Assembly: GCA_964615365.1 (NCBI GenBank)
Contig: CAZTOU010000006.1
Coordinates: 51,587-115,586 of the forward strand
DNA from: an uncultured Spirochaetales bacterium
GTDB lineage: Bacteria; Myxococcota_A; UBA9160; UBA6930
Length of the DNA: 64,000 nucleotides
Reading direction: 5' to 3'
This document shows positions 9,417-40,227 of the stretch, piece after piece (positions within the stretch are counted from its first letter, which is position 1; the number at the start of each line of letters is the position of its first letter). The translations under genes and the position numbers were made by a program. The notes below the pieces were generated by a model. The model saw only the letters and a program-made list of their open reading frames with translations, had not been told where the DNA came from and did no database searches.

Positions 9417-10163
9417 ATGCAGAGCCTCTCCACGGTCGAGAAGGCGATCGATCTTCTCTTCCACCTTCACCAGGAGGCGGCGCCCCGCGGGGTTACTGCG
9501 GTGGGCAAGGCCCTCGATCTCCCCAAGTCGACCGCCCATCGCCTGCTCACCACGCTGACACGCCGCGGCCTGCTGGAGCGGGACGCGCGCGGGCAGTACG
9601 GCCCGGGCATCGGCCTGGTCGCACTGGGACTCGGGTTCCTGGACCGGGAGCCGGCGGTGGTTGCGGCTCGGCCGGTGCTCGAGTCCGAGGCGGAGCAGCT
9701 CGGCGAGACCGTGTTTCTGACCGCGGCGCGCGCCGGCGCCATCGTCGTGCTGGACAAGGTGGAGGGAAGCGGCTTTCTGCGCGCGGCGCCGCGAATCGGT
9801 TCGACGGTTCCCATTCACGCCACCGCCGTGGGGAAGCTCCATCTGGCGCACGCTCCGGAATCCGTGTCTCTCGGCGACGGGCCGCTGGAGAGCTTCACCC
9901 CCTCGACTCGGACCGACCGGTCTGTGCTCGCAGCCGAGGTCGAGCGGGTTCGGCGCCAGGGCTACGCCGAGAATCGGGACGAGTGGATTTCCGGGCTCAC
10001 GGCGATCGCCGCGCCGGTCTTCGCCGGGGGCCGGATGGTCGCGGCGCTGGCCGCAGCGACTTCCTCGGCGCGCTGGGAGGCACTTCACAGCTTCGAGATC
10101 GCCAGCCGCATGCGGGGCGGGGCGCGGCGCATCGGCGAGCGAATGGCGGGAGGGCAGACATGA
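9417..10163 (+). CDS. IclR-family transcriptional regulator
   Basis: Track ORF 9144..10163. The ATG at 9417 is preceded by AGGAG at about 9399-9403. Winged HTH: VTAVGKALDLPKSTAHRLLTTLTRRGLLERD. The C-terminal effector domain contains GLTAIAAPVF. Confidence 0.85.
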   Translation: MQSLSTVEKAIDLLFHLHQEAAPRGVTAVGKALDLPKSTAHRLLTTLTRRGLLERDARGQYGPGIGLVALGLGFLDREPAVVAARPVLESEAEQLGETVFLTAARAGAIVVLDKVEGSGFLRAAPRIGSTVPIHATAVGKLHLAHAPESVSLGDGPLESFTPSTRTDRSVLAAEVERVRRQGYAENRDEWISGLTAIAAPVFAGGRMVAALAAATSSARWEALHSFEIASRMRGGARRIGERMAGGQT

Positions 10164-25706: not shown

Positions 25707-25735
25707 GGGCCCCTCTCGGCGAATCCCGCGCGCGA

Positions 25736-25764
25736 ACCATATCGGACCGATCCGGTACTGTAAA
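25736..25764 (-). promoter_or_regulatory. candidate sigma70-type promoter of the Rrf2-suf operon
   Basis: The minus strand reads TTTACA, then 17 nt, then TATGGT, about 30 nt upstream of the Rrf2 ATG. It sits in an unusually AT-rich patch (ATCCTATATTTACAGTACCGGAT) with inverted ATCC...GGAT ends that could also be the Rrf2 operator. Confidence 0.4.
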
Positions 25765-26041
25765 TATAGGATCGATTCGGTTCTGATTAAAGGGGAAATC
25801 CCCGCGGGGAGGCGGAATCCTCCAGCGGGAACGTTAGGCTCGGACCGCTCGCGCCGACGCCGCCGGGGCGGCGCATCCTGTCATGGTCCCCGGAGATGCT
25901 CAGACAGGACGGGCCATCCGGAAGAGGATCAGGTCGCTCGCGACGCGCTCCCAGCGCCAGAGGTCGAGATCGCCGTGCTGCGCCGCCATCTCGTTTACCA
26001 ACCCGTCGGACCTCCAGCACAGTACCTCTGCAGAAACGAGT

Positions 26042-26155
26042 GCCACCCAAGCGCCAGAAACGAGTGCGAAACGAGTGCCCAGAAACGAGTGCCACCCAAG
26101 CGCGCCCAGAAACGAGTGCCAGAAACGAGTGCCACCCAAGCGCGAAGTTCCTACC
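26042..26155. repeat. tandem array of 6 short direct repeats (core CAGAAACGAGTGC; 3 copies extended by CACCCAAGCGC)
   Basis: Read directly. Units lie at 26042-26065, 26066-26078, 26079-26090, 26091-26116, 26118-26130 and 26131-26155. The reverse complement resembles the array at 27367-27441. Confidence 0.85.
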
Positions 26156-26340
26156 GCGAGAACGAGAGATTCGAACGTGTTGGAGAGCCATCACTTGGGG
26201 GATTTGACCTTCGACGGATCTCGCTGGGCATGCAGGAATGCCGGAGGTGAGCGAAGACCGGCCTGGCAGACGACCAAACGAACCACTGAGAGGTCGCGTG
26301 GCGTAGGCTCCCGCGCGGGGACGCTGGATCTCTGAAGCGG

Positions 26341-27276
26341 CTATGCGCCATCCGCCAGGGCGGGCCGTACCAGTGCCCCTCCCGGTGGGAAGGACCAGTC
26401 TGGGAAGGCGATCGAGACACCCTCCCGGAGGCGCGTGGAGGCCTCCCGGTAGAGATCCGCGAAGGCGCGGAAGGCCTGACGAAAAGCCGCGCGCAAGGCC
26501 GGGGCCGCGGCATGACACAGCGGGCGCGGCCCACGCTTCGGCTGGCGCGGAGCCGCGTGCCAGCTCTGCGACAGAATCCGCGAAGCTCCGAGGGGCCGAA
26601 GGCCTGCCTGGCGCCGCTCGTTAGCCAGCTTCGCCTCCCGAGCCTCGATGCCCACGATCAGCCGTGCGTCCCCAGATCCGCCCCTTTCGGTGAGGAGCGG
26701 ATCGATGACGAGATTCGATTCCACCCGGAAAGCCTCTCTTCCGGGAGGTGCCTCGCCCCGGCATCGAGCCCGTGCCCTCTCTCGCCGCTCCTGGTCCCGG
26801 TCGGTCCACGAGACGGGAATCCCCTCCTGGCGCGAGCCGCGGGCGAAGAGCACGACGCCGGGCCACTGGTCGGTCCGGCTACAGAGCCCCGCCGCGACGG
26901 GGTTGGTGACCGTGTAGACGAGGCGATCGACGAGGGCCTCGTCATCCAGGATGGGCTCCGCCGAGTAGCGTCGCTCGAAGCAGGCTCCGGTGCGTCCTCG
27001 GAGTTGATTGACGGCTCGGGCGAGGTTGCCGAGGAAGTAGCTGGCCCAGGCAGCGAGCTGACCTTTCCGATCGTGCACGACGAGATGGAGGTGATTCGAA
27101 AGGACACAGGCGGCGAGGATGCGGAGTTTGGGGAACTGGTGCTGGGCGCGGGTCAACCACTCGAGGACGGCGAGGTTGAGTTTCGTGTCGGGACGGAGGA
27201 AGAAGCGGGCCTGGTGGCAGCGGGAGGTGATCAGGTAGTACTGGCCGGGGGCTTGTCTTCGGAGGGGTCGTCCCAT
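26341..27276 (-). CDS. IS200/IS605-family Y1 (HUH) transposase, RAYT-like, with about 150-aa C-terminal extension
   Basis: The ATG at 27276 gives MGRPLRRQAPGQYYLITSRCH. HUH motif SNHLHLVV; catalytic-Tyr motif RLVYTVTNPVAAGL (YxxxNPVxAGL). The upstream part of track ORF 26341..27438 is just translated repeat (MGATHPSVH twice). Confidence 0.8.
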   Translation of the reverse strand: MGRPLRRQAPGQYYLITSRCHQARFFLRPDTKLNLAVLEWLTRAQHQFPKLRILAACVLSNHLHLVVHDRKGQLAAWASYFLGNLARAVNQLRGRTGACFERRYSAEPILDDEALVDRLVYTVTNPVAAGLCSRTDQWPGVVLFARGSRQEGIPVSWTDRDQERRERARARCRGEAPPGREAFRVESNLVIDPLLTERGGSGDARLIVGIEAREAKLANERRQAGLRPLGASRILSQSWHAAPRQPKRGPRPLCHAAAPALRAAFRQAFRAFADLYREASTRLREGVSIAFPDWSFPPGGALVRPALADGA

Positions 27277-27366
27277 GGGAGTGGGAGAGAGCAAGACCTG
27301 TGCCGGCTCTTGAGGCACCTCGTTCGTCGAGAGACCCGGTTGTGATCTCCCGTTCACGTCCTTCCT

Positions 27367-27441
27367 GTGAACGGACGGGTGGGTGGCACCCATTCTGGCA
27401 CCCATTCTGCAGTGAACGGACGGGTGGGTGGCACCCATTCT
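27367..27441. repeat. tandem repeat array (core GGCACCCATTCT x3; two copies carry the 5' extension GTGAACGGACGGGTGGGT)
   Basis: Units at 27367-27396, 27397-27408 and 27412-27441. The long units contain the small hairpin GGGTG-GGTGG-CACCC. The array is an inverted, imperfect match to 26042-26155. Confidence 0.85.
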
Positions 27442-27529
27442 CGGCTCGAGCTGCGCGAGCTCCTGGTGTGGGCGGACTTCGTCTTCTCCGGCGTCCTCTA
27501 GGCGATCTGCTCACGCACAGGGGAAGCCC

Positions 27530-28486
27530 TCATCGCCACAAGCGCGGAGGACTGGGCGGCGCCGCACAGTTGTCATCGCCGCAGGGGTCGGGCGGTGAGG
27601 GGCGGCTCGGCGTCCTGGGCTCCGGCCTCGGAGGCTCCGGCTCGTGGAAGGGAGTGCCGTCGATGCAGACGGCACCCAGGCCACAGCCGCCCTCGTGTAG
27701 CGACATGCCCGGTCCTTCCAGCTCGAACGGCGCTTCGGGCGACGCGGCCACCGGCGGCAGGTCCAGATCGGCCATGTCCTTGCCTGCGATCTTCTCGGTC
27801 ACGTCCGGCTCTCGGTCGGCGCGGGCGATCCAGATCGGTATCGCGTGGAGATCGTTCATGCAGTCCGCCCGCCCGGCGACGTCCTGCAGCTCGAGGCGTC
27901 GCGGCTCATCGGCAATCCCATCCTTGTGGACGGTGACCTTCTCGCCAGCGTTGAGCATGATGGAGCGGCTGCGCGTCGGGTCGCTGGTCTGGGTCCGAAT
28001 CTCGACCTTTCCTTTCTCCAACGCGAAGGTGGAGTCACCGGTCACCGGATCCACGTCTACCGAAACGATGGTGCCCAGGATTGCTGCGATCGCCACGGGT
28101 GTGTGGATCTCGAGCGGCTCGCTGGCGACACGGGGCCCCACCAGCGCCCGGGTGGATCCCTCCATGACATCCACGATGGTGGCGCCGCGTGCTTTCTCAT
28201 AGCGCAGACGAACGGCAGCCTCGCCGCAGAACTGCACCAGCGAACGTCTGTCGACGAGCAACGAGCAGGCCGCATCGGGGCCGGTCACGATGCTCTCCCC
28301 TTCGGTTACCGTGCTGGCGATCTCCGCGGGATTCGCACCGACAGAGGTGTCACCCTTCACCGAAGTGACGGTTCCCGAGATTTCGGCCTCGGCCGGGCCG
28401 CTCATGGCGAGAGCGCCTACCGCGATGATTATCGTCATGGCGAGGGAAATCCGGCGTCCCATCTTCCATCGAATTCGCTGCTTCAT
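27530..28486 (-). CDS. secreted FecR-domain protein, with no adjacent ECF sigma factor
   Basis: Signal peptide MGRRISLAMTIIIAVGALAMSGPAEA. FecR-like core: GESIVTGPDAACSLLVDRRSLVQF...EIHTPVAIAAILGTIVSVDVD...LEKGKVEI. C-terminal tail is Pro-rich and contains Cys. Confidence 0.7.
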   Translation of the reverse strand: MKQRIRWKMGRRISLAMTIIIAVGALAMSGPAEAEISGTVTSVKGDTSVGANPAEIASTVTEGESIVTGPDAACSLLVDRRSLVQFCGEAAVRLRYEKARGATIVDVMEGSTRALVGPRVASEPLEIHTPVAIAAILGTIVSVDVDPVTGDSTFALEKGKVEIRTQTSDPTRSRSIMLNAGEKVTVHKDGIADEPRRLELQDVAGRADCMNDLHAIPIWIARADREPDVTEKIAGKDMADLDLPPVAASPEAPFELEGPGMSLHEGGCGLGAVCIDGTPFHEPEPPRPEPRTPSRPSPPDPCGDDNCAAPPSPPRLWR

Positions 28487-28938
28487 TGCTACTCTCCCTC
28501 TCTCATCCCCGGATCAGAACCGGTCGTTGGCGAAGGCCGCGACACCAAGAACGCCGCCGCGGCGGCGAGTAAGCCCGCCCTGTTGCAGACTCCTGTACTC
28601 CTCGTTCCATCGCACGCTTCTCAATCTGGTGGCGATTCTAGGATGCGTAGGGGCGTCTGTGCTGTGAACCAGTTCTCACCCTCGAGCGATTCTTCCAGTT
28701 TCTCCATGTGCTCCCGATCCCCGCGGGTTGCGGTCCAGACCAGAGATCCTCCTCGTCGAAGAAGATCGGCACGACTGCGTCGTTCGCTTTCGCCCGGATC
28801 AGACGAACAACTGAAGATTCAACGACGTCCCTGGCAACTACCGCGAAGGAGCAAAGAACTCAACTGGGCTTCCGTATAGCTCTATCCAGGCGGTGCATTC
28901 GGTCGAGCTCATCGCGTGCGTCGATTGAACTAGGGACG

Positions 28939-29320
28939 ATGATAGACTGGACATCGCCGAGGTCGACACCCAGCACGAGCAGCTCGTGAATCTACTCGAC
29001 AAGCTGCACGAAGCGATGAGTGGTGGGAAGGGAAGAGAAGCTGTTCAGAGCACCTGGAAGGACTGGCAGACTACGCGGTCTACCATTTCGAGACCGAAGA
29101 GAACCTCTTCGACACATACAACTACCCCGCCGGTGCCCTCCACAAGGCACAGCATGCCGAATTCATCCAACGGGTTCGCGAGTTCAAGGAGAAGCTCGCA
29201 CGGGGAGAAGCCACGCTCTCGATCGAGGTGCTCAACTTCCTTTCTGGCTGGCTCACCAAACACGTTCGAGGCAGTGACTTCGAATTCGCACCGTTCTTGA
29301 AGAGCTGCGGCGCGCAGTAG
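28939..29320 (+). pseudogene. hemerythrin-like gene disrupted by frameshifts
   Basis: Three consecutive frames carry the pieces. MIDW begins at 28939. DIAEVDTQHEQLVNLLDKLHEAMSGGKGREAV begins at 28950. SEHLEGLADYAVYHFETEENLFDTYNYPAGALHKAQHAEFIQRVREFKEKLARGEATLSIEVLNFLSGWLTKHVRGSDFEFAPFLKSCGAQ* begins at about 29045 and ends at 29320. The last piece holds most of the His/Glu/Asp iron ligands but has no in-frame start codon. Confidence 0.75.
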
Positions 29321-29341
29321 CCCGCATTTCTCCCTGGTTCG

Positions 29342-30601
29342 TCAGAGATCGGCGTCGCAGAACCGCGCGAGCGGGGTGAGCACTCCGCGGTTGTCGTGGC
29401 ACCAGGAGAGAGGGGGGGCCTGCATGGTGCCGACGGGGCAGATCCGAGAGACGCCGAGCTGGCGAAGGGCGTCGGTCATCTCGCTTCGCTGATTCGCGAA
29501 GCCGCCGACTCCGACGCTGGCCAGGTGGCGCTTCACCGGGGTGAGGGCCTCCACCAGCCCGCCGAGTTCGGCGACCGGGTGGACCCGGACGAAGCGATGC
29601 AGGGGGGACGGCCGGAACCGGGCGTCGCCTTCCACCACCACCGTCCAGCGGGTCCCCGCACTCTGATGGAGGCGAATCGGCGCGCCGCCCGCGGCGCGCA
29701 TCTCCGCCTCCTCGCGTTCCCGCGCAATGTCTGCCGAGACCCCGGGAGGGATCCGGCCTCGCGGCCAGCGTTCCTCGAGATCGGCGAGCGCTTCCGCCAG
29801 CTCTGCGCCGAACCGAGCCGCTTCGTCCGGCTCGTGACCGGCGATGAAGATCGCCACCGGAGACAAACAGCCGAGCTGGTCCCATAGGGCGACGTCCTCG
29901 GCGACGCGCGCGGCGGAGTCGGCGGGCCGGTCCGGGGCGAGAGCTGTCACCGAGAGCCGGTGGCCGTAGCCGACCAGTCTTCGCGGCGGCTCGACCCGAG
30001 ACGCAACACTGGAGAGTGTCTGATCGGAGCCGCTGGCCACCACGCAATCGGCGGCGAGCAGGGAGTCGACGCGCTCGCGGTCGCTGCCGGGGAAGGCGAC
30101 GACCTCGATGCAGGCGCCGAGCTCCGGGTCCGCCGCGGCGACGGATCTCGCCACCAGCCGGGCTGTCACCGGATCGTGTGCGGAGGCCTTGGCGAGCACC
30201 GACGAGCGGAGCACCAGTGGAGCGAGGAGTCCGATCAGCGTCGGCGTGGGCAGCGCGCCCGCCAGCAGCACCGAGGTGACCTCGAATCCGGAGGCGGCCC
30301 TGATGCCGGTGCCCTCCAGGGCCTGGGTCCCTCCGAGCTCTCGGTCGACGAGCGATCGCAGGGCGTCTCCGGTCCAGCCCGCGAGTGCCCGGGCCATGCC
30401 GGCCTCCACCATCGCGGGCGAGAATCCGGTGGCGTCGGCGTACTCGGTGCGCAGAGCGCCTCGAACCTCCGAGTCGGGATCACGCCAGGTCTCGAGCACC
30501 GAGGCGAGGGCGGAGGTGGTCTCCCGCGCGGGGCGCCGGCGCAGTCGCAGGCTCGCACCGCGAAGTCGTTCCAGCGCCGCGCGGATCTCCTGGGCGCTCA
30601 T
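29342..30601 (-). CDS. LuxC-family acyl-CoA/acyl-protein reductase (aldehyde-forming)
   Basis: 419 aa. VLLAGALPTPTLIGLLAPLVLRSSVLAKASAHDP, CVVASGSDQTL, and the catalytic-Cys context VALWDQLGCLSPVAIFI resemble the LuxC family. The start overlaps the upstream stop (ATGA). Confidence 0.75.
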   Translation of the reverse strand: MSAQEIRAALERLRGASLRLRRRPARETTSALASVLETWRDPDSEVRGALRTEYADATGFSPAMVEAGMARALAGWTGDALRSLVDRELGGTQALEGTGIRAASGFEVTSVLLAGALPTPTLIGLLAPLVLRSSVLAKASAHDPVTARLVARSVAAADPELGACIEVVAFPGSDRERVDSLLAADCVVASGSDQTLSSVASRVEPPRRLVGYGHRLSVTALAPDRPADSAARVAEDVALWDQLGCLSPVAIFIAGHEPDEAARFGAELAEALADLEERWPRGRIPPGVSADIAREREEAEMRAAGGAPIRLHQSAGTRWTVVVEGDARFRPSPLHRFVRVHPVAELGGLVEALTPVKRHLASVGVGGFANQRSEMTDALRQLGVSRICPVGTMQAPPLSWCHDNRGVLTPLARFCDADL

Positions 30602-31746
30602 GGCAGGCGACCGTTCCCGCTCTCTCGCGGCTCGCTCGGGGCTCGCTCCCGAAGCATCTCGTCCGCGGCGATGGAGCAGCCGCGGGCCTCGGCGCCGGGC
30701 TCTCGTCCGAGTACCTGGAAGCCGTCTTCCACCGCCCGGCCGAGATCTGCGCTCCGGACCGCGAGAACGCTTCCCGTGTTGGCCAGGTCGAGAATCGTCA
30801 CCACGCCGATCTCGCCGTAGGGCGGCTCCTTCCCGGTCTCCGGGTCGATGATCCGCACCCGGGTCCAGGGCGGTCCCAGCTTGCGCCGCGGCGTCCCCGG
30901 GAAGCGCAGCACCGAGTCGTAGAACTGGCTGCCGAGCTCGGTCATGCCGTACTGATTGACGACGCGGTCGGGGGGCAGACCGAGGGCGGACTCGATGCGC
31001 TGGTAGAGCTCGTCCCGCCGCAGCTCCCGGGAGCGCCCCTTGGACCCTCCCGTCTCCATCGCTCTCGAGCCTTCCGGGAGCGCGATCCGGCGCCCCTCGC
31101 TCTCCATCCCCTCGAGGAGGTGAACCAGGGCAAGGGCCGTCCCGCAGACCAGCACCGCGACCCCGCCTGCCGCTGCCCGCTCGAGACCTTCGAGCAGGCG
31201 CCCGGCCTGGAGCTGGTCTCCACCCACCAGAAAGCCGCTCTCCCGATCACCGCGTCGCTCGAGAACCACACCGAACATGTGGGAGAGCGACGAGTCGGGC
31301 GCCTCCTGTGGCGAAGGGGCGAGGATCGCGATCCGCATGCGCTCCCCTTCCCCGACGTCGGGCAGCAGGTGGCGCTCGAAGCTGGGGAGCAGGGAGGCTT
31401 TGTAGAGCTCCAAGGTGTCGAGGTGGAGTTCTCCCCGCCTTCGCATCGACGTGCCGCTGGTGCGAAACACGTGGCACTCGCGCTCGGCGGGAAAGGAGCG
31501 CAGCGCCATCTCCTTGAAGGCGCCGGTCGGGACCGCCGGGACCTCTCGCCAGGAGGCGACATTAATCGGTGTTGCTCCCCGCGCCCGGCAGAATCGCGCG
31601 AAGGGAGGACAGCGGGCGAACTGGTGGGAGAAGAGCTCGAGAGCGAGCTCCTCGAAACGAGCCTCGTCGTCGCGGGCCTCCGTCTCGCCCATCCAGGCGA
31701 GGATGCGCGCGTCGAGCTCCGCACGCGCCGGGTCCGCACCGCTCAT
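30598..31746 (-). CDS. LuxE-family acyl-protein synthetase (adenylate-forming)
   Basis: The ATG at 31746 overlaps the aminotransferase stop (ATGA). WREVPAVPTGAFKEMALRSF...HVFRTSGTS, then METGGSKGRSRE and NQYGMTELGSQFY, match the ANL/LuxE-like pattern. Confidence 0.75.
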   Translation of the reverse strand: MSGADPARAELDARILAWMGETEARDDEARFEELALELFSHQFARCPPFARFCRARGATPINVASWREVPAVPTGAFKEMALRSFPAERECHVFRTSGTSMRRRGELHLDTLELYKASLLPSFERHLLPDVGEGERMRIAILAPSPQEAPDSSLSHMFGVVLERRGDRESGFLVGGDQLQAGRLLEGLERAAAGGVAVLVCGTALALVHLLEGMESEGRRIALPEGSRAMETGGSKGRSRELRRDELYQRIESALGLPPDRVVNQYGMTELGSQFYDSVLRFPGTPRRKLGPPWTRVRIIDPETGKEPPYGEIGVVTILDLANTGSVLAVRSADLGRAVEDGFQVLGREPGAEARGCSIAADEMLRERAPSEPRESGNGRLP

Positions 31747-33020
31747 CGGATGCACTCCACCAGGGTCGCGAGCGCGGCGAGCAGCGCATCGCTCTCGATG
31801 CAGAGCGGCGGCGTGATGGAGAGGACGCGGGCGTCGTCTCCTGAAGGGAGCAGGATGATTCCGCGCGAGAGCGCCGCCGAGCAGGCGTGAGCGGCCGTCT
31901 CGGGTCGATCGCATTCGATGCCGATCATCAGACCGAGTCCCCGGACGTCCACGACGCGGGCCTCGTCGCAGAGCGCGTCTCGCAGGAATCGGAGCGCGGC
32001 GATCCCGCTCTCCGCGGCGCTCTCCACCAGCTTCTCTTCCTCGAGGACCGCGAGGGAGGCGAGGGCCGCGGCGCAGCCCGGCGGGTGCCCCAGAAAGGTC
32101 TGGGTGTGGATCGCTTCGCCCTCTGAAGCCGGCCAGGCATCCATCACCGCGGCCCGACCCAGGCAGGCGGAGATGGGCATGCCCGAGGCCAGACCCTTCG
32201 CGACACAGAGGAGATCGGGCACCACCTCCTCGTGGTCGCAGGCGAACCAGCGCCCGGTGCGGCCGAAGCCCGTGTAGACCTCGTCGGCGATCAGTAGCCA
32301 GCCCTCCGCGTCGCATCGACGGCGGAGACTCCGGAGGAAGCCGCGGGGTGGGATTCTCTCGCCGCCACGGCCCTGGATCGGCTCCACCAGCACCGCGCCC
32401 ACCGGCTCTCCGAGTTCCGCCGCGGCGCGCACCACGTCGTCCGCGTCGCCGAAGCGCGCGAAGACGGTGCGTCCCGGAAGGCGCTCGTCGAAAGGCTCCC
32501 TGAAGAAGGGGCGCCAGGTGGCGTCGAGAGCGCCGAGGCCGAGCCCGTGATACGCCCCCTCGAAGGCCACCACGCCGGACCGGCCGGTGCAGATCATCGC
32601 CGTCTTGAGGGCGGTCTCCACGGCATCCGCCCCCGAAGAGCCCAGCACCGCGCGGGCGGGCTCGCCGCCTGGGAAGCGCGCGACCAGGGTTTCCAGGAGC
32701 GCCACCTTCACGGAAGGGGGCTGCACGTCACCCATGGCGTGGAGGAGTCGATCGGACTGCCGCGAGAGGGCTTCGATCACTCGGGGGTGCCCGTGGCCCA
32801 CATTGGCGACGCCGAATCCCCCGCCCAGATCGACGAAGCGGTTGCCGTCGATGTCCCAGACGTTCGCTCCGGCGGCGCGCTCCCAGAAGATCGGAGCCGT
32901 CGGAGCGAGGCAGGTTACGTTCCGGCTCTCGACCTTCGCGAGACGCTGCGCGAGCTCCCTCGAGCGGGGCCCGGGGACGGCGGTCAGGAGCTCCGGAGGC
33001 GACGTCTTCCAGTGCGACAC
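31743..33020 (-). CDS. class III PLP-dependent aminotransferase (GabT/ArgD-like omega-aminotransferase)
   Basis: 425 aa. GSSGADAVETALK, AFEGAYHGLG, VEPIQGRGGERIPP, LIADEVYTGFGRTGRWFA, and CVAKGLASGMP (the Schiff-base lysine). Confidence 0.9.
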   Translation of the reverse strand: MSHWKTSPPELLTAVPGPRSRELAQRLAKVESRNVTCLAPTAPIFWERAAGANVWDIDGNRFVDLGGGFGVANVGHGHPRVIEALSRQSDRLLHAMGDVQPPSVKVALLETLVARFPGGEPARAVLGSSGADAVETALKTAMICTGRSGVVAFEGAYHGLGLGALDATWRPFFREPFDERLPGRTVFARFGDADDVVRAAAELGEPVGAVLVEPIQGRGGERIPPRGFLRSLRRRCDAEGWLLIADEVYTGFGRTGRWFACDHEEVVPDLLCVAKGLASGMPISACLGRAAVMDAWPASEGEAIHTQTFLGHPPGCAAALASLAVLEEEKLVESAAESGIAALRFLRDALCDEARVVDVRGLGLMIGIECDRPETAAHACSAALSRGIILLPSGDDARVLSITPPLCIESDALLAALATLVECIR

Positions 33021-33200
33021 GCGGGAAGTCTAGAAGCCCTCCCCGGGATGGGCGAGGAAGGTCCGGCGCCGGAGGACTCGGGACGAGCCGCGGCGCGCCT
33101 CTACGCCGTATGCCAGAATGGCGCGAATGGCCCCGATCGCCCTCGTCGGCTCCCGCTCGCGAGCGGCGTGGCTCTCCGCGCCGGTAGCGGATCCCCGGGG

Positions 33201-33698
33201 ATGAGCCGCGCCTTCGTCTCGCTCGGCTCGAACCTGGGCGACCGGGAGCTCCACCTGCGGCGCGCGCTCGAAGCGCTTCGAGCCACCCGCGGCATTCACG
33301 GGCTCGGTGTCTCGCCGATCTACGAGACCGATCCGGTCGGGCCGCCTCCCCAGGGCCCCTACCTGAACGCGGTCGCCGAGATCGAGACGGAGCTCGAGCC
33401 TCGAGCCCTCCTCCTGCGGATGCTCGAGATCGAGATCGAGGAGGGGCGGATCCGGAGCGGAGCTCGCGGTGAGGCGCGGACCCTGGATCTCGATCTCCTG
33501 CTCTTCGGCGATCGCTGCATCGACGAGGAGGAGCTGGTCGTTCCCCATCCGCGCATGCACGAGCGGTGCTTCGTGCTCGAGCCGCTCTCCGGCCTGGCGC
33601 CGCAGTGGGTTCATCCGCGTCTGGGAATCACGGTCGCGGAGCTCGCCACCCGCGTGCGCGATCCGAGGGCGGTTCGTCCCTGGCGAGAAGGGAGATGA
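33201..33698 (+). CDS. folK: 2-amino-4-hydroxy-6-hydroxymethyldihydropteridine diphosphokinase
   Basis: The ATG at 33201 within track ORF 32547..33698 gives AFVSLGSNLGDR...SPIYETDPVG...RTLDLDLLLFG...LVVPHPRMHERCFVLEPL. Confidence 0.9.
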   Translation: MSRAFVSLGSNLGDRELHLRRALEALRATRGIHGLGVSPIYETDPVGPPPQGPYLNAVAEIETELEPRALLLRMLEIEIEEGRIRSGARGEARTLDLDLLLFGDRCIDEEELVVPHPRMHERCFVLEPLSGLAPQWVHPRLGITVAELATRVRDPRAVRPWREGR

Positions 33699-34439
33699 TC
33701 AGACGGCGCTCTCGTCGTCCAGCAGCGCGGGGAGGTGGATCAGAGCGGCCCAGCTATCCGGCCCCGTGGGGGCCGCGTAGCGGCTTCCTCCGTGGGCGGA
33801 GATGATCCTTGCAGCGCTCTCGAGGCTGACGCATGCGATCGGGTCGGGGGCCCGCGCGGGGTCGAGAACGGCCTCGGCGACCGAGTCCGGAAGATCGCTG
33901 CCCTCGATGGCGATCCCCAGCCGGATCTGCGCTTCCGTCGGCTCCGCTCGGACGGAGAGAGTGAGCCTGGTCGGATTGCCGGCGTGGTCGGCGGCGTAGT
34001 GGGCGAGGGTCAGCACCAGGAGCTCCAGGTCGCCGGCGTCTCCCCGGACCAGCAGGAAGTCATCCGGTGTGTCCACTGACAGCTGGTTCTGACTCCCCAG
34101 GGTCTCGGAGAGGATCGTCCCCAGCTCGCGGACCAGGCGCACCAGGTCCACCTCGTCCGAGCCGGCCTGGCTGGGATGGCGCCGGGCCAGGAGCGCCCGT
34201 GTCAGCCTGGTGCACCGGTCGAGAGCTCCCAGGATCGTCTGACACCCCTCGACCACCAGAGCGTCTCGCTTGCGATCTTCCAGCAGGAAGCTCGCCTCTC
34301 CGACCACGGTGGCGAACACGTTGTTCAGGGTGTGGGTTGCGCCCATGGCCAGCCGGCACATCGCCTCGAGCCGTGCGACCTCCTCCGGCTGCGGAAGCCG
34401 CGATCTGGAATAGACCGGTATCTCTCGCCGTCCCACCAT
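33699..34439 (-). CDS. soluble histidine-kinase-like protein with a degenerate ATP-binding domain
   Basis: ATG at 34439; 246 aa. H-box-like AMGATHTLNNVFATVVGEASFL. The C-terminal domain is HATPase-sized but I see no clear DxGxG or GxGxG boxes. Confidence 0.6.
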   Translation of the reverse strand: MVGRREIPVYSRSRLPQPEEVARLEAMCRLAMGATHTLNNVFATVVGEASFLLEDRKRDALVVEGCQTILGALDRCTRLTRALLARRHPSQAGSDEVDLVRLVRELGTILSETLGSQNQLSVDTPDDFLLVRGDAGDLELLVLTLAHYAADHAGNPTRLTLSVRAEPTEAQIRLGIAIEGSDLPDSVAEAVLDPARAPDPIACVSLESAARIISAHGGSRYAAPTGPDSWAALIHLPALLDDESAV

Positions 34440-34691
34440 CGAGCTATCGGCGATCCGCGCCGGAAGGTGAACACACGGTCCCCTGTCGCTCGCCCGGTGC
34501 TTCGACGGAGCGATCCCGGGAGGCGGCAGACCGGGGCGCGCGACGGGCCACAAGCGACCCGCAACTCGGCGGCGACGAAACGGCAAGCCCCCGGCAATCC
34601 AAGGGATTCTCGCCCCCCGTTGGGTTTTTGCATCAAGGGGGCCACGCGGACGGCCGATGCGAGGAGGGGACGGTGTGGCACGGAGGTCCGA

Positions 34692-35081
34692 ATGCGATCC
34701 GCGACCGGAGCAGCGAAGACCATCGCCGGACTGCTGGCGGTGACGGGGATGCTGGCTCTCTCTTCCCCCGGTGTCCGCGTGGCACGGGCCGGGGACGGCG
34801 ATACGGCTGCTCCCGAGGTCTCCTCGGAGGCCGTCCCGGCCGGTGAGGGGACCGGAGTCTGCAAGGTCGGCGAAGAGCCCAGGCCCCGCACCAGCCCCGG
34901 CCTCGATCGCGCCCAGATCGCCGAGCGGATCCGATTGGAGATGCAGAGCAGCGGCGAGAAGCCCATCGTGCTGAACGGCCGCGGCTACAACTACCGGGCC
35001 GTGCAGGACCCGCTTCGCGAGCTCCAGGTGGTCGAAGCCGAGGCCACTCGGCAGCAGGAGGCGGCTCCGGCGGGACGCTGA
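34692..35081 (+). CDS. small secreted hypothetical protein
   Basis: The ATG at 34692 is preceded by GGAGG (34683-34687). Signal peptide MRSATGAAKTIAGLLAVTGMLALSSPGVRVARA. 129 aa, G/C-rich third positions, lies directly upstream of the kinase pair. Confidence 0.55.
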   Translation: MRSATGAAKTIAGLLAVTGMLALSSPGVRVARAGDGDTAAPEVSSEAVPAGEGTGVCKVGEEPRPRTSPGLDRAQIAERIRLEMQSSGEKPIVLNGRGYNYRAVQDPLRELQVVEAEATRQQEAAPAGR

Positions 35082-35143
35082 CACCGTTTCTTTGACACTC
35101 CGGCCACCCCCAGACTAAGATTCCCGCGGGTGCCTGGAGTGCG

Positions 35144-37678
35144 ATGAACCCGAGAGCGACGCTTCGCTTTCAACGGGCGACGGCTGCTCTGGCCATCGCG
35201 TGGGCGCTGCTTGCCCTGGGGGTGGCAATCCACGGCCAGGTCCTTGCCTCGCGCTCCCCCTCCACGCCCTTCACCTCGTCTGGCGCCATCGGACGGGTGG
35301 TGGTCCACGCGCTCACGCCCGCCGCCCGGGCGGCGGGATTCGAGGCCGGGGATCGCCTCGTCGAGGTCGACGGCCAGCCGATCGGCTGGTGGCTCCGCAG
35401 CGCGCAGCGTCTCGTCTACGGGGCGGCGAACACCTACACGGTGCAGAAGCGCGACGGCCGCCGGATCAGCGCGGCCCTGGAGCCCGTCCCCCCGAACCTC
35501 CAGATGTTCCTTCCGCAGCGGGTCCTGGATCTCGCCGTCTCCCTGGTGGCGGTGATCTACCTGGCGATCGGTGTGGGCGTGTGGCGCCTCAAACGAGATC
35601 GACCCGAGTCCTGGGCCCTGCTGCTCTTCTGCGGCGTCGTCGCCGCGCAGCTCTTCCTGGCGGGTCCGAACACGGCGGCTGCATACACCCTGAACCTGAT
35701 CACGGTTCCCTTCATCGGTTCGACGACCTTCCACCTCTTCACCAGCTACCCCAACGAGCCCCGGTGGATCGTGCGGCATCCCCAGATCCGGTTGGTCCCC
35801 CACGGGCTCGCCATCCTGGTGGCCGGCTTCGGTAGCCTCGAGCCCTACCTCGACCTTCCCGCCGGGATCTGGGGGCAGATCGGGGTCTTCTTCGCGATCG
35901 CGGTCTCGCTGCTCTGCATCGGAATCCTCCTCTACGAGCGATGGAATCGTCGCCTCGATGGCGCGGTGGATCGCTCGGACGTGTTGGTGCTCGGCGGCGC
36001 GCTCAGCTTCCTCCCCGTCATCGCCGTGCTGATGGTGCACTACTTCTTCGGCACACCCTTTCCCTGGCACGCGGCGCTTCTCGGCTTCTTCATGTTCCCG
36101 GCCGCGGTCGGGTACGGGATCGTCCGCCAACAGCTCTTCGAGATCCGGATGGTCGCCAAGAGCTCGGCTGCCTACGGCGCAGCGACGCTCGCCATCACCG
36201 GCCTCTTCGCCTTCCTCATCACCTTCACCGATGCGCTGGTGGGGCGCTTCAACGTCGATGCTCGTTCGCCGATCGTCTCGGTGGGATTCCTCTTCTTCGC
36301 GATCCTCCTCTTCAACCCGCTCCGCGTCAGGATGCAGCGCCTGGTCGACGGCTTCTTCGATCGCGATCGCGTGGCCCACAGCGTGGCGATTCGCGAGATC
36401 TCCGAGGCGATGGTTTCCATGCTTTCGGTGAAGGAGATCGTCGATCGCATTCTCGTGGCCGTGACCGACACCATGGGAGTCGAGGGTGCGATGGTCCTGC
36501 TCATGGACGACAAGGACGAGGTCCTGCGGCTGGAAGCGTCTCGCGGCGTCTGGGACGAGGAGGCCACCGGCGCGACCTTCCGCTCCGACCATCCACTGTG
36601 TCGACAGCTCTGGATGCGGCGCACCTCGCTCTCCCGCCGCGATTTCGACGAGGAAGGGGATCCCGAGATCCGCGAGACCTGCCGCGACGTCTACGACACT
36701 CTCGACGCGGAGGTGCTGGTTCCGATTCTCTTCGGCGTCGATCTGCTCGGTGTGATCGCGGTGGGGCGGAAGCTCTCCGGGGAGCGCCTCGGTGTCGATG
36801 AGCGCGAGCTGCTGCGCACCCTCGCGAACGGGTGTTCCATCGCGATCGAGAACGCGAGGGCATTCGACGAGATCGCCAAGCTCAATGAGACCCTCGAAGG
36901 CCGGGTCGAGAATCGCACCCGCGAGCTCCGCGACACCCAGGCCCAGCTCGTCCAGAGCGAGAAGATGCGCTCGCTCGGTCAGCTCGTCGCCGGCGTGGCC
37001 CACGAGCTCAACAACCCGATCGGATTCGTCCACGCCAATCTCCAGCTCCTGGACGAGTACGTGGGGAAGCTGATACGGCGCGAGATGGATCCCGAGGAGC
37101 GGGCGCGGATCCGCGAGGCGATCCGGAAGCTCCTCAGCAGAAGCCGGGAGGGGACGGAGCGGGTCAAGCAGATCGTCGAGGATCTGCGGACCTTCTCCCG
37201 CGCCGATCAGGCCGAGCTCCAGGAGGTCTGCATCAACGACGAGCTCGAGCGAACCCTGACGCTGATCGAGCCGAGGCTCCGGGACGGAATCCGGGTGGTG
37301 CGAGAGTACGGCCAGGTGCCCCTGATCCGCTGCATGGCGGGACAGATGAATCAGGTCTTCATGAATGTGCTGATGAATGCCTGCGATGCCCTGGAGGAGA
37401 AGGGCCGGGTCGTGATCCGGACGCACCCCATCGAGGATGGCGTGCGGGTCGAGATCGAGGACGATGGCCCCGGAATGTCGCCTGAGGTGAAGAGCCGCAT
37501 TTTCGACCCCTTCTTCACCACGAAGGACGTCGGCAAGGGCACGGGGCTCGGCCTCTCCATCTCCCACGGCATCGTCGACCGTCACGGCGGCAGCATGTGG
37601 GCGAGGTCCGAGCCGGAACGGGGGACGACCTTCGTGATCGACCTTCCGCTGGAGGCCCGGGTGGAGGAGACACCGTGA
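35144..37678 (+). CDS. sensor histidine kinase: TM - PDZ-like - polytopic membrane region - GAF - HisKA - HATPase
   Basis: 844 aa. PDZ-like GFEAGDRLVEVDGQPIG; about 8 TM helices; GAF-like LVAVTDTMGVEGAMVLLMD; H-box GQLVAGVAHELNNPIGF; N box NVLMNACDA; G boxes EDDGPGM and GKGTGLGLSISHGIV. Confidence 0.9.
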   Translation: MNPRATLRFQRATAALAIAWALLALGVAIHGQVLASRSPSTPFTSSGAIGRVVVHALTPAARAAGFEAGDRLVEVDGQPIGWWLRSAQRLVYGAANTYTVQKRDGRRISAALEPVPPNLQMFLPQRVLDLAVSLVAVIYLAIGVGVWRLKRDRPESWALLLFCGVVAAQLFLAGPNTAAAYTLNLITVPFIGSTTFHLFTSYPNEPRWIVRHPQIRLVPHGLAILVAGFGSLEPYLDLPAGIWGQIGVFFAIAVSLLCIGILLYERWNRRLDGAVDRSDVLVLGGALSFLPVIAVLMVHYFFGTPFPWHAALLGFFMFPAAVGYGIVRQQLFEIRMVAKSSAAYGAATLAITGLFAFLITFTDALVGRFNVDARSPIVSVGFLFFAILLFNPLRVRMQRLVDGFFDRDRVAHSVAIREISEAMVSMLSVKEIVDRILVAVTDTMGVEGAMVLLMDDKDEVLRLEASRGVWDEEATGATFRSDHPLCRQLWMRRTSLSRRDFDEEGDPEIRETCRDVYDTLDAEVLVPILFGVDLLGVIAVGRKLSGERLGVDERELLRTLANGCSIAIENARAFDEIAKLNETLEGRVENRTRELRDTQAQLVQSEKMRSLGQLVAGVAHELNNPIGFVHANLQLLDEYVGKLIRREMDPEERARIREAIRKLLSRSREGTERVKQIVEDLRTFSRADQAELQEVCINDELERTLTLIEPRLRDGIRVVREYGQVPLIRCMAGQMNQVFMNVLMNACDALEEKGRVVIRTHPIEDGVRVEIEDDGPGMSPEVKSRIFDPFFTTKDVGKGTGLGLSISHGIVDRHGGSMWARSEPERGTTFVIDLPLEARVEETP

Positions 37679-40227
37679 GCCCGGAAGCCACGCTGCGGAT
37701 CCGGCGGGCCACCGCGCTGCTGGTGGTGCTCTGGGCCGTGTCGGCTCTGGTGCTCGCGATCCACGGGCAGCTCTCCTCGCGCCGGATCGTCGCCGCGCCC
37801 CTACAGACCTCGGCAATCAGCGGTGTCGCGCTGGTCAGCTGGTGCAGCGACGCGGCGGCACAGGCGGGCGTGAAGCTCGGCGATCGGGTCATCGAGGTGG
37901 AGGGGATCCCGGTCCGCCAGTGGTACCGCGATCAGGGCTGGGACGAGCTGCGGGCCGGGGTCCCGATCCGTTATCTGATCGAGACCAGAGAGGGCGAGCG
38001 CTTCGAGGTCGAGCTCGTCGCCGTGGTCCTGGCCGTTTCGTACGAACGGATCCTGCTGCCCATCATCCTCGCCTTGATCGCGGTAGGCAGCGCCTACCTG
38101 GCGCTGGGACTCTTCGTCTGGAAGCTCAAGCCGGATCGGGCGGAGTCGTGGGCCTTTCTGCTCTTCAGCGCCCTCATCGCCACCCAGCTCTACGGATCCT
38201 TTCACACCTACGACGCGATCTGGGGCTACGAGCGGATTCTGATCAACCTGCCCTTCGTCGGCGCGGCGGCCTTCCACCTGTTCACGACCTTTCCCTTCGA
38301 ACCCCCCTGGGTGCTTCGCCATCCCGGGATTCGCTTCGTGGGCTACCCGATCGCCGGCGCGATCGCCCTGCTGGCGGTGGCGGATCGGATCGTGGGGATC
38401 TCGGACACCGTGCTCCCCGCGGTCGGCTACGCGGTCGCCCTGGTGGGTGCGCTGGCTTCGGTGTCGATCCTGGTGAGGGAACGGATCCGACTGCGGGGAT
38501 CCGACGTGGCCGGGAGCGCCACGATCGTGCTGTTGGGCGCCCTGGTGAGCTTCCTGCCGGTGCTCCTGCTGCTGGCGACGCAGGTCTTCTTTCTCCGCGT
38601 CACCTTCCCGCTCTGGCTGGCCCTCTTGTGGTTCGCCGTCTTCCCGATCGCGGTGGCCTACGGCATCGTGCGAGGCCAGTTCTTCGACATCCGGGGTCTG
38701 GCGCGCTCCTCGGCCGCCTACGGCATGGCGACGCTCGCGATCACGGGGCTGTTCGCTTCGCTCATCAGCTTCGCCGACGCGGCCTTCGCGCGCTTCAACG
38801 TGAACGCCAGCTCTCCGTACTTCTCGGTCACGTTTCTCTTCTTCGCGATACTCGCCTTCAATCCCCTGCGAAACCGCCTCCAGGCGCTGGTCGACCGGCT
38901 CTTCGATCGCGATCACGCTGGATACCGCACCGCCGTTCGTGAGATCTCGGAGGCCATGGTCGCGATGCTCTCCCTCCGCGAGATCAGCGACCGTCTGCTC
39001 GTCGCGGTGACCGACACCATGGGCGTGGAACGGGCCATGGTCCTCTTGCTGGACGAGGACGAGCGCGCGCTGCGGCCCGTCGCCTGGCGCGGCGACTGGG
39101 ACGAAGAGGATCTCGACGTCCGGCTCTCGGTGGACAGTCCGGTGGGAAAACATCTGTGGATGCGACGCCAGGAGCTCGCTCGCAGCGACTTCGACGACGC
39201 CACCGACGCGGAGACGCGGGACGCGAGCCGGGACTTCTTCGACAGTCTCGACGTGAAGCACCTGGTGCCGATTCTCTTCGGCGTGGATCTGCTGGGGCTG
39301 ATCGCCGTGGGAGGAAAGCTCTCCGGCGAGCTCCTCGGCGCCGATGACCGACAGCTGCTCCGCACCCTGGCCAACCAGAGCGCGATCGCCATCGAGAACG
39401 CCCAGGCTTTCGACGAGATCGCGCAGCTGAACGAGACGCTGGAGGCGCGGGTCGAAGAGCGTACCTCCGAGCTCAAGAGCGCCCAGACGCAGCTGATGCA
39501 GAGCGAGAAGATGCGTTCGCTGGGTCAGCTGGTCGCCGGCGTAGCCCACGAGCTCAACAATCCGATCGGATTCGTCCACGCCAATCTGCAGCTTCTCGGC
39601 GGCTACATCGACCGACTGATTCAGGCCCAGGAAGCCGGAGAGGATCCCCAGAAGGAGCGGGAGGCGATCACCAAGCTGCTCTCGCGGAGCCGCGAAGGAA
39701 CCGAGCGGGTGAAGAAGATCGTTCTGGATCTGCGCACCTTCTCCCGGAAGGGCCAGGCGGAGCTCACCGAGGCGGATCTGAACGAAGAGATCGATCGCAC
39801 CCTCGCCCTGATGGAGCCGCGTTTCAAGGGCGGCATCACCATCGAGCGCGATTGGCAGGAGCTGCCACCGGTAAGGTGTCTTCCGGCGCAGTTGAATCAG
39901 GTGTTCATGAATCTGGTCATGAACTCCTGCGACGCCATGAAGGGGAAGGGGCTCATTCGCATCCGCTCGCGGCCGGCGCCGGAGGGAGTCCTGCTCGAGT
40001 TCGAGGACGACGGTCCCGGGATTCCCGAGGAGATGCGAAGCCGGATCTTCGATCCCTTCTTCACCACCAAGCCCGTGGGCCAGGGGACCGGCCTGGGTCT
40101 CTCGATCTCCCACGGAATCGTGGAGCGCCACGGGGGAAAGATGACCGTGGAGTGTCCTCCCCGGGGCGGAACGATCTTCCGCATCACCCTGCCGCTGGTG
40201 GCGCTCACTCAGGAAGACGCGGCCTGA
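37675..40227 (+). CDS. paralogous sensor histidine kinase with the same architecture as the preceding gene
   Basis: The GTG at 37675 overlaps the upstream stop (GTGA). The order of PDZ-like (GVKLGDRVIEVEGIPV), polytopic, GAF, HisKA (GVAHELNNPIGFVHANLQ) and HATPase (GQGTGLGLSISHGIV) regions is the same as in the preceding gene. Confidence 0.9.
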   Translation: MSPEATLRIRRATALLVVLWAVSALVLAIHGQLSSRRIVAAPLQTSAISGVALVSWCSDAAAQAGVKLGDRVIEVEGIPVRQWYRDQGWDELRAGVPIRYLIETREGERFEVELVAVVLAVSYERILLPIILALIAVGSAYLALGLFVWKLKPDRAESWAFLLFSALIATQLYGSFHTYDAIWGYERILINLPFVGAAAFHLFTTFPFEPPWVLRHPGIRFVGYPIAGAIALLAVADRIVGISDTVLPAVGYAVALVGALASVSILVRERIRLRGSDVAGSATIVLLGALVSFLPVLLLLATQVFFLRVTFPLWLALLWFAVFPIAVAYGIVRGQFFDIRGLARSSAAYGMATLAITGLFASLISFADAAFARFNVNASSPYFSVTFLFFAILAFNPLRNRLQALVDRLFDRDHAGYRTAVREISEAMVAMLSLREISDRLLVAVTDTMGVERAMVLLLDEDERALRPVAWRGDWDEEDLDVRLSVDSPVGKHLWMRRQELARSDFDDATDAETRDASRDFFDSLDVKHLVPILFGVDLLGLIAVGGKLSGELLGADDRQLLRTLANQSAIAIENAQAFDEIAQLNETLEARVEERTSELKSAQTQLMQSEKMRSLGQLVAGVAHELNNPIGFVHANLQLLGGYIDRLIQAQEAGEDPQKEREAITKLLSRSREGTERVKKIVLDLRTFSRKGQAELTEADLNEEIDRTLALMEPRFKGGITIERDWQELPPVRCLPAQLNQVFMNLVMNSCDAMKGKGLIRIRSRPAPEGVLLEFEDDGPGIPEEMRSRIFDPFFTTKPVGQGTGLGLSISHGIVERHGGKMTVECPPRGGTIFRITLPLVALTQEDAA

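Follow-up and report, generated by a model that had tools for sequence, protein, structure and literature searches.

Several described systems bear on the operon considered here, a trio of genes for a class III aminotransferase, a LuxE-like acyl-protein synthetase and a LuxC-like reductase in a 64,000-nucleotide stretch of DNA (the window) from an uncultured Spirochaetales bacterium (GTDB lineage Bacteria; Myxococcota_A; UBA9160; UBA6930; GenBank assembly GCA_964615365.1, contig CAZTOU010000006.1, positions 51,587 to 115,586 of the forward strand). One is the LuxC-LuxE pair of Photobacterium phosphoreum (structure 7XC6), which in luminous bacteria uses myristate: Lys238 and Arg355 of LuxE serve adenylation, Cys364 in its flexible C-terminal motif TRxxKGCxLS hands the acyl group on to LuxC's catalytic Cys, and a C-terminal element of LuxC forms the exit of a 40 Angstrom hydrophobic cleft (PMC9157457). 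An acyl group likewise passes to an aldehyde and then, through a class III aminotransferase, to an amine in TabE/TabA of the tambjamine BE-18591 pathway, in PigE, in TamH and in engineered cascades that couple a carboxylic acid reductase (CAR) to an omega-transaminase. These systems draw on acyl carrier protein (ACP) or CoA thioesters or on the multidomain CAR, have fatty or polyketide chains as substrates and form part of secondary metabolism.

The third point of comparison is the queuosine pathway, for which the published papers searched describe one route from GTP to preQ1 (7-aminomethyl-7-deazaguanine), via QueC and QueF. There, the acid 7-carboxy-7-deazaguanine (CDG), the product of QueE, is turned by QueC into an amide and then the nitrile preQ0 at the cost of 2 ATP and ammonia, and QueF then takes the nitrile to the amine with 2 NADPH. 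The base preQ1 is what Tgt inserts into tRNA en route to queuosine, and genomes without queC and queF are usually assumed to salvage the base, not to make it. The nitrile preQ0 is also a branch point for archaeosine, 7-deazaguanine DNA modifications and deazapurine antibiotics. The trio would resemble LuxC-LuxE joined to an omega-transaminase in mechanism and QueC plus QueF in proposed role, and by sequence it is a sister of LuxE-LuxC operons that continue into a short-chain dehydrogenase/reductase (SDR) and stand under the control of thiamin pyrophosphate (TPP) riboswitches. What would be new is the placement of a LuxCE-type reductase in the queuosine pathway, with preQ1 reached without preQ0.

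The operon and its catalytic residues

The three genes follow one another on the minus strand in the order aminotransferase, LuxE-like, LuxC-like, and at both junctions the start codon overlaps the preceding stop by four bases (Table 1); the list of open reading frames (ORFs) and a direct reading of the minus strand agree on the two ATGA overlaps from which the earlier note had read translational coupling, a reading that holds. Its family assignments also stand, since all three proteins pass the Pfam thresholds: the LuxE-like protein matches PF04443 at 39.7 bits (threshold 24.9, E=3.6e-10) over profile positions 23-388 of 391, the LuxC-like protein matches PF05893 at 178.8 bits (threshold 21, E=2.2e-52), and the aminotransferase matches PF00202 (Aminotran_3) at 314.8 bits (E=9.5e-94). 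None of the three reaches an NCBIfam equivalog cutoff: the LuxE-like protein scores 40.5 bits vs 550 for NF052244 (long-chain-fatty-acid--protein ligase), the LuxC-like protein 60.7 vs 750 for NF052251 (long-chain fatty acyl reductase), and the aminotransferase 298 vs 552 and 298 vs 639. All three are thus members of known families for which no curated model fixes a function. The reported absence of luxA, luxB and luxD was likewise found to hold, as neither a luciferase-like monooxygenase nor a LuxD-type family appears among the window's likely genes in Pfam scans, and a hidden Markov model (HMM) built from luciferase-like proteins of the lineage finds none in the window.

The best match of the LuxE-like protein in the PDB is LuxE of 7XC6 (E=3.2e-9). 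Its key residues K236 (in GGSK), R348 and C357 (in RGC357SIA) are invariant in 70 sequences and correspond to Lys238, Arg355 and Cys364 of LuxE and to the motif TRxxKGCxLS, with the spacing from R348 to C357 (+9) equal to that from R355 to C364. The protein ends 25 residues past C357 and has no C-terminal subdomain of the ANL type. In the LuxC-like protein, Cys245 lies in WDQLGCLSP, a motif that is invariant across the lineage, Cys included. The proposal that this is the context of the catalytic Cys is upheld by an alignment in which Cys245 falls in register with the catalytic Cys of Photobacterium LuxC (7XC6 chain A); a failure of that alignment had been named as grounds for abandoning the idea. 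The alignment covers residues 63-442 of the 477 of the 7XC6 LuxC chain and the window's protein ends 6 residues later, being shorter than LuxC at both ends, by about 60 residues in all, and without a counterpart of P460-P488, the C-terminal element of LuxC that serves oligomerisation and makes up the last part of the long hydrophobic cleft.

A parallel may thus be drawn with LuxC-LuxE in adenylation, self-thioesterification on a C-terminal Cys of LuxE, a Cys reductase of the aldehyde dehydrogenase fold and the use of NADPH, with the three LuxE residues (Lys, Arg, Cys) and the LuxC Cys all conserved in the trio. The two systems differ in that sequence similarity between them is marginal (E about 1e-8 to 1e-9), in that the trio is without luxA, luxB and luxD and is coupled to an aminotransferase, and in that its predicted substrate is a 7-deazapurine acid, not myristate.

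The aminotransferase has GabT as its closest solved structures (E about 1e-68), is about 35% identical to E. coli GabT and counts PigE among its NCBIfam and PDB matches. It shares with GabT, ArgD and PatA the fold, the overall sequence, the lysine for pyridoxal 5'-phosphate (K275 in CVAKGL, aligned with that of the GabT structures) and the Asp of the ADEV motif. In contrast, an alignment to GabT structures sets AYHG-R, QG-E-GG and V-I-R-L-L-P-P-L of mycobacterial GabT against AYHG-L160, QG-R218-GG and V-L-S401-I-T-P-P-L of the window's protein, so that in E. coli GabT numbering Arg141 becomes Leu160, Glu211 becomes Arg218 and Arg398 becomes Ser401. In E. coli GabT, Arg141 binds the distal carboxylate, Glu211 is the gate and Arg398 binds the alpha-carboxylate. 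Among 68 lineage sequences L160 is at least 90% conserved, R218 is invariant and the replacement at the Arg398 position is also conserved. By these sequence marks the enzyme is a distinct subfamily with the signature YHGL plus QGRGG and no Arg at the Arg398 position, and with the carboxylate-binding residues lost its amine or aldehyde substrate most likely lacks a carboxylate, which argues against the roles of GabT, ArgD, OAT and LysJ.

Conservation of the trio and the wider family

A protein-collection search with the LuxC-like sequence returned only unnamed metagenomic and Myxococcota proteins, and a scan of one genome per species found the subfamily in 294 genomes, all of them uncultured metagenome-assembled genomes of Myxococcota type. 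From these, 80 loci (collected loci are denoted by L and a number) were kept for the analysis of the lineage. The order aminotransferase-LuxE-LuxC on one strand is found in 68 of the 69 lineage loci with enough upstream DNA. The sole exception, L027 (CP070734.1), has a run of N just upstream of the LuxC-like gene, around 9900-10000, and its seeming loss of LuxE and the aminotransferase is explained by that run at the junction; L027 contains 300 N in total. A start codon permitting the four-base overlap is present at 66 of 73 aminotransferase/LuxE junctions and at 50 of 73 LuxE/LuxC junctions, and LuxE and LuxC form one ORF in two lineage loci (L048, L070), as they do outside the lineage in L124 (7911-10457). 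The arrangement is far beyond chance and is no accidental neighbourhood. The co-occurrence with conserved overlaps that the earlier note wanted checked across genomes is therefore real, and the outcome that would have spoken against it, an aminotransferase inside the ArgD/GabT clades with canonical residues and an unconserved linkage to luxCE, is not what was found on either count.

Beyond the lineage, L091 and L093 carry aminotransferases of the window's type (45-49% identity, matching signature) in the order aminotransferase-LuxE-LuxC. A search with the L091 aminotransferase also recovered the trio with its four-base overlaps in the cultured Sandaracinus amylolyticus (CP011125.1, L095 10001-13673), where an SseB-like gene stands before it and a conserved 141-aa ORF after it. 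Comparison of these sequences with that of L094, described below, shows that a class III aminotransferase became coupled to LuxE/LuxC on two or more independent occasions, with two different gene orders.

Searched exhaustively with phmmer, the LuxE-like protein has matches in 3192 representative clusters at E<=1e-3 and in 840 of them at E<=1e-30. This wider family includes LuxE::LuxC and Zn-alcohol dehydrogenase (Zn-ADH)::LuxE fusions (P0148, P0155, P0163, P0202; P0147, P0182, P0129). The LuxE-like and LuxC-like proteins may pair physically and functionally, as their genes are adjacent with a four-base overlap and relatives have both in a single ORF; these single-ORF fusions support a physical coupling of the steps. 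Public records label non-luminous LuxC as 'acyl-CoA reductase', with a bioluminescence GO term, and LuxE as 'long-chain fatty acid--CoA ligase'. Other members of the family keep different company: two Streptomyces plasmid clusters (L089 3629-11262, L090 3995-11412) hold a PaaK-like ligase, MFS, GNAT, LuxE and a LuxC of 845 aa, much extended at its C-terminus, and at the P0125 locus LuxE-LuxC is divergent from ThiF-family, PALP (cysteine-synthase-like) and SDR genes.

Relatives beside queuosine genes

A second set of 80 further loci came from a metagenome scan with the LuxE alignment, and que genes were sought by tblastn (with E. coli and L094 queuosine proteins), in ORF maps and by family scans. 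The closest LuxE outside the lineage (P0124, 51-53% identity) lies in L094, in the order queD-queE-luxE-luxC-aminotransferase with gaps of 2-6 bases and one overlap; its QueD is truncated (TIGR03367), its QueE matches TIGR04349 at 254 bits, and its aminotransferase, also class III, is of another type and shares 34% identity with that of the window. L118 has queE followed by a window-type aminotransferase (56% identity), with LuxE-LuxC further along, and L124 has queE, an aminotransferase (49% identity) and then the LuxE::LuxC fusion; both of these queE-adjacent aminotransferases share YHGL and QGRGG with that of the window. The order in L113 and L114 is queG-aminotransferase-luxE-luxC, and nine loci show luxE-luxC-queD, their QueD being about 60% identical to that of E. 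coli. All told, queD, queE or queG stands beside LuxE/LuxC in 14 loci, with or without an aminotransferase, and among the 26 metagenomic loci with adequate flanks a que gene is present in 10, an aminotransferase in 8 and a TPP riboswitch in 2.

In none of the 173 kb of local flanks around the 14 que-linked loci was queC, queF, tgt or queA found, nor in the whole 2.17 Mb of collected loci. In a neighbour-joining tree the que-linked LuxE sequences occupy several branches around the window's clade. One LuxE-LuxC-queD locus, L147, is flanked by four Acido-Lenti-1 RNA motifs in inverted pairs (5773-5818, 5916-5961, 11470-11515, 11614-11659).

A sister branch behind TPP riboswitches

A tblastn search of plasmids brought another part of the family to light: cultured relatives, with LuxE about 40% and LuxC about 30% identical, occur in Pantoea, Azospirillum, Priestia, Niallia and Lactobacillaceae. 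In these plasmid operons LuxE-LuxC is followed by an SDR, along with an ABC or NCS2 uptake transporter. A TPP riboswitch precedes all four of the operons examined, and also a Modestobacter locus and three metagenomic loci (n=8; Table 1), although two of the eight, in L088 (49.0 bits) and L092 (49.7 bits), score under the Rfam gathering threshold of 54.3. The hosts thus include Pantoea, Azospirillum, Lactiplantibacillus plantarum (on a plasmid), Priestia and Modestobacter besides the three metagenomic contigs, and the operons also encode either an SDR or a Zn-ADH, as well as a transporter for uptake (ABC, NCS2 or SSF). Their eight LuxE sequences form one separate clade in the neighbour-joining tree, and no aminotransferase occurs at the TPP-linked loci. 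Conversely, the TPP model RF00059 has no match in the window or in 7 lineage loci scanned with Rfam, a pattern search for TPP riboswitches has none in any lineage locus, and no riboswitch for preQ1 or any other ligand was found at the aminotransferase-type and que-linked loci.

These operons share with the window the LuxE/LuxC subfamily, the C-terminal motif GR..GA.A[KR]GCS and parallel first two steps. They differ in their third enzyme, an alcohol-forming SDR or Zn-ADH (the SDR resembles OarX, orthology being putative), in the transporter and riboswitch and in forming a separate clade. The branch of LuxE-LuxC with SDR/ADH behind TPP riboswitches probably serves thiamin salvage. OarX is a candidate for thiamin salvage, a process for which carboxyl reduction has been proposed (Oliveira-Filho, Rodionov and Hanson 2024, PMC11223231), and the gene content suggests that an OarX-type SDR reduces the aldehyde made by LuxE/LuxC from a thiamin-derived acid.

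A proposed route from CDG to preQ1

With the catalytic residues of all three proteins conserved, the general claim of the earlier note, that a carboxylate is reduced and the product then transaminated to give a primary amine, is well sustained, and the sequences make it very probable that the trio runs from acid to aldehyde to primary amine. The LuxE-like protein would adenylate the acid with ATP and move the acyl group onto its own C-terminal Cys357; the acyl group would then pass to Cys245 of the LuxC-like protein, whence the aldehyde would be released using NADPH, and the class III aminotransferase would turn the aldehyde into a primary amine with an amino acid as donor. The reverse course from amine to acid, which had also been entertained, is unlikely because the LuxE and LuxC steps consume ATP and NADPH.

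As to the specific reaction, the balance of the sequence evidence tips slightly toward CDG as the substrate, which would be reduced to 7-formyl-7-deazaguanine and aminated to preQ1. The trio would then replace both QueC and QueF, matching their net change from the carboxylate of CDG to the aminomethyl group of preQ1 with unrelated protein families: whereas the canonical steps go by amide and nitrile, the proposed ones would go by thioester and aldehyde (1 ATP, 1 NADPH), take the amino group from an amino acid and have no preQ0 intermediate. The larger proposition, that there is a widespread QueC/QueF-independent route to preQ1 in which LuxE/LuxC reduce CDG to 7-formyl-7-deazaguanine, a dedicated aminotransferase follows and preQ0 is never formed, is about evenly poised between true and false. 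The preQ1 reading is favored because relatives recur beside queD, queE and queG without queC or queF. This placement is itself a likeness to queC and queF, which sit beside queD/queE in operons such as Bacillus subtilis queCDEF. The preQ1 reading also accounts for the independent recruitment of two types of aminotransferase and for the lost carboxylate-binding residues, and a vertically inherited operon among housekeeping genes suits a universal need such as queuosine. In this respect, too, the trio departs from the tambjamine-type pathways, being a housekeeping-type operon with a LuxE-type self-acylating synthetase.

Alternative substrates

A number of observations weigh against the preQ1 reading. 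No que gene stands within 10 kb of the trio at any of the 80 loci from the lineage to which the window belongs, nor beside it in Sandaracinus, so that the link to queuosine is carried over from relatives at 40-56% identity, and the LuxE neighbour-joining tree that relates them is crude, with long, star-like branches. The queD-linked clade has no aminotransferase in its flanks, and its acid could be QueD's own product, 6-carboxytetrahydropterin. No preQ1 riboswitch occurs at any locus searched, a literature search on LuxC/LuxE with an aminotransferase, on 7-formyl-7-deazaguanine and on alternative preQ1 routes found the system undescribed within its incomplete coverage, and the family does change substrate, as the sister clade tied to thiamin by TPP riboswitches indicates. 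One might suppose the same chemistry on some other small polar or heteroaromatic acid, with the distant queuosine neighbourhoods not transferable to the window's clade. Such a substrate is unlikely, yet it would be in keeping with a family found in two contexts or more (que genes, TPP riboswitches), in which substrate switching therefore occurs, with the exclusively housekeeping neighbours in the window's lineage (folK, cysH, the MTH1187 family, a CDF transporter and the suf operon), and with the 9 of 26 well-flanked metagenomic loci that have neither a que gene nor an aminotransferase nor a TPP riboswitch. Set against it are the aminotransferases with the matching unusual signature directly beside queE in L118 and L124 and the que-linked members on several branches around the window's clade. 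A further alternative, quite improbable, holds that 6-carboxytetrahydropterin or pterin-6-carboxylate is reduced to a 6-formyl pterin that feeds a pterin or folate branch. This would account for the neighbouring folK, which is divergent from the trio in 51 of 54 lineage loci and in some of them is part of a fusion that joins HPPK with an MFS transporter or with an alpha/beta hydrolase, and for the nine luxE-luxC-queD loci with no aminotransferase nearby. However, transamination would yield 6-aminomethyl pterin, which HPPK does not use and which is not known to have a role; the aminotransferase-containing versions are accompanied by the queuosine-specific queE and queG, and the adjacency to folK is missing outside the lineage, within which the same block also holds the unrelated cysH and suf operon.

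That the trio itself serves thiamin metabolism is suggested by its eight relatives directly behind TPP riboswitches, with LuxE about 40% identical and with SDR/ADH and uptake transporters at hand, by an MTH1187-family thiamine-binding protein near the trio in 23 of 54 lineage loci, and by the carboxyl reduction proposed in the OarX literature (PMC11223231). The absence of a TPP riboswitch from the window and from the lineage loci, in both the Rfam and the pattern searches, the want of an aminotransferase at the TPP-linked loci and the separate clade of their LuxE sequences make this very improbable. To the same degree improbable is the conversion of a fatty acid through a fatty aldehyde to a long-chain alkylamine or amino-lipid precursor, the example offered in the earlier note: LuxE and LuxC of luminous bacteria do use myristate (PMC9157457), a hydrophobic amine would fit an enzyme that has lost the equivalent of GabT Arg141, and stand-alone pairs of reductase and transaminase yield dodecylamine in tambjamine synthesis, but in no lineage is a lipid, ACP, thioesterase or acyltransferase gene linked to the trio, its similarity to true LuxE and LuxC is marginal, the element at the cleft exit of LuxC has no counterpart, and the recurrent neighbours are queuosine genes, with relatives of the trio lying in queuosine operons. 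Least probable of all is an amino-acid or polyamine pathway, in which the aminotransferase would be a GabT, ArgD or PatA and LuxE/LuxC would supply a semialdehyde or amino-aldehyde (e.g., GABA to 4-aminobutanal to putrescine). GabT, putrescine aminotransferase and acetylornithine aminotransferase are indeed its best structural and NCBIfam matches; nevertheless, all the scores fall far under the family cutoffs, the carboxylate-binding residues are replaced, with the replacements conserved, and no arg, lys or polyamine gene is linked.

Implications

If the route from CDG to preQ1 is true, a non-orthologous replacement of QueC and QueF would alter the way in which genomes and metagenomes are read for queuosine capacity, in hundreds of Myxococcota species as well as in other phyla, and the carriers would lack the preQ0 branch point unless they make preQ0 in another way. 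It would also give non-luminous LuxC/LuxE pairs their first physiological role, and the non-luminous LuxE/LuxC family (the 840 clusters at E<=1e-30) might then be seen as largely reductases of heteroaromatic acids, with queuosine and thiamin branches. The TPP-linked sister branch offers a concrete hypothesis for the long-standing puzzle of OarX. A compact set of enzymes that would convert heteroaromatic acids to aminomethyl compounds with ATP, NADPH and an amino donor is of interest for biocatalysis, and with one carrier, Sandaracinus amylolyticus, in culture, the idea can be tested directly.

Table 1. Coordinates of the operon, its key codons and its upstream region in the window, and of TPP riboswitches upstream of LuxE-LuxC at other loci
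Feature	Sequence	Position	Strand	Detail	Source
Class III aminotransferase gene	window	31743-33020	-	425 aa, GTG start	ORF list
LuxE-like gene	window	30598-31746	-	382 aa counted from ATG at 31746	ORF list
LuxC-like gene	window	29342-30601	-	419 aa	ORF list
ATGA overlap, aminotransferase stop / LuxE-like start	window	31743..31746	-		minus-strand sequence read directly
ATGA overlap, LuxE-like stop / LuxC-like start	window	30598..30601	-		minus-strand sequence read directly
Aminotransferase codon L160	window	32541-32543	-		
Aminotransferase codon R218	window	32367-32369	-		
Aminotransferase codon K275	window	32196-32198	-		
LuxE-like codon K236	window	31039-31041	-		
LuxE-like codon C357	window	30676-30678	-		
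LuxC-like codon Cys245	window	29867-29869	-		
Intergenic spacer between operon and divergent folK	window	33021..33200	.	180 bases; presumed operon promoter region	
folK (HPPK)	window	33201..33698 (about)	+	divergent neighbour; synteny conserved within the lineage only	tblastn
TPP riboswitch	L085	7415-7544			
TPP riboswitch	L086	7352-7484			
TPP riboswitch	L087	1390-1497			
TPP riboswitch	L088	7469-7577			
TPP riboswitch	L092	4475-4588			
TPP riboswitch	L097	97-210			
TPP riboswitch	L139	1365-1467			
TPP riboswitch	L146	1289-1391			

Neighbouring genes and other features

The Rfam scan of the window found no riboswitch and no Rfam match there, the spacer upstream of the operon included, and a scan of the operon for promoters and terminators found no consensus promoter. 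The divergent folK encodes a product 77% identical to the HPPK of L001 (tblastn), and the orthologue in L003 scores 138.8 bits against TIGR01498 (cutoff 54.1). Across the lineage the trio has cysH as a neighbour in 41 of 54 loci and a CDF transporter in 16 of 54, in addition to the folK and MTH1187-family genes already counted, and an Rrf2-suf operon lies downstream in 38 of 53. These neighbours, together with a B12-binding radical SAM gene, were considered as functional clues and rejected, as their adjacency is gone in other lineages; folK, for instance, is not beside the trio in L091, L093, L094 or L095. Their functions being mutually unrelated, they are read as a lineage-wide syntenic block and not a functional cluster, and the adjacency of folK is retained as a weak hint.

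Some of these neighbours are of interest in themselves. The fusion of folK to an MFS transporter is found in one lineage locus and that to an alpha/beta hydrolase in about nine (L002 2708-4420; L072 646-2058; and eight other lineage loci carry folK fusions), and both are unusual HPPK architectures. The B12-binding radical SAM gene, with a DUF4070 domain, follows LuxC directly in 12 of the 53 lineage loci (L002 9418-10962 and 11 others), is absent from the window and has weak matches to many B12 radical SAM families. A luciferase-like monooxygenase was rejected as a linked gene: it occurs in 9 lineage loci, 2-9 kb upstream and not adjacent (L084 4055-5095 and 8 other loci). A gene for an FAA hydrolase is present a few kb upstream of the trio in 20 lineage loci (L038 3773-4873 and 19 others); in a 2026 preprint, PF00202 and PF01557 are listed jointly for Streptomyces 7-deazapurine clusters, and a link to the trio is possible.

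The other likely genes of the window are of a housekeeping kind and include the Rrf2-sufBCD operon, two GAF histidine kinases, BioA, acetyl-CoA synthetase, ProRS, aconitase and Mla proteins. BioA (40268-41560, plus strand; TIGR00508 484.6 bits, cutoff 405) is a second class III aminotransferase, unrelated to the trio. The histidine kinases (35144-37678 and 37597-40227, plus strand) are tandem GAF-HisKA-HATPase paralogs with an overlap of about 80 bases between their longest ORFs; a PDZ domain is present as well in the first, and the pair is conserved in L001. Between folK and the kinases, on the minus strand, lies a 461-aa ORF (33699-35084) with coding-like GC3 and no Pfam match; at the syntenic place in L001 two short genes are called instead, one on each strand. 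The region 25707-29341, between the LuxC-like gene and the Rrf2-suf operon, is missing in the same close relative, L001; it holds a gene with a FecR domain (27530-28486), an ORF without a family match (26341-27438) and about 850 bases with small ORFs only.

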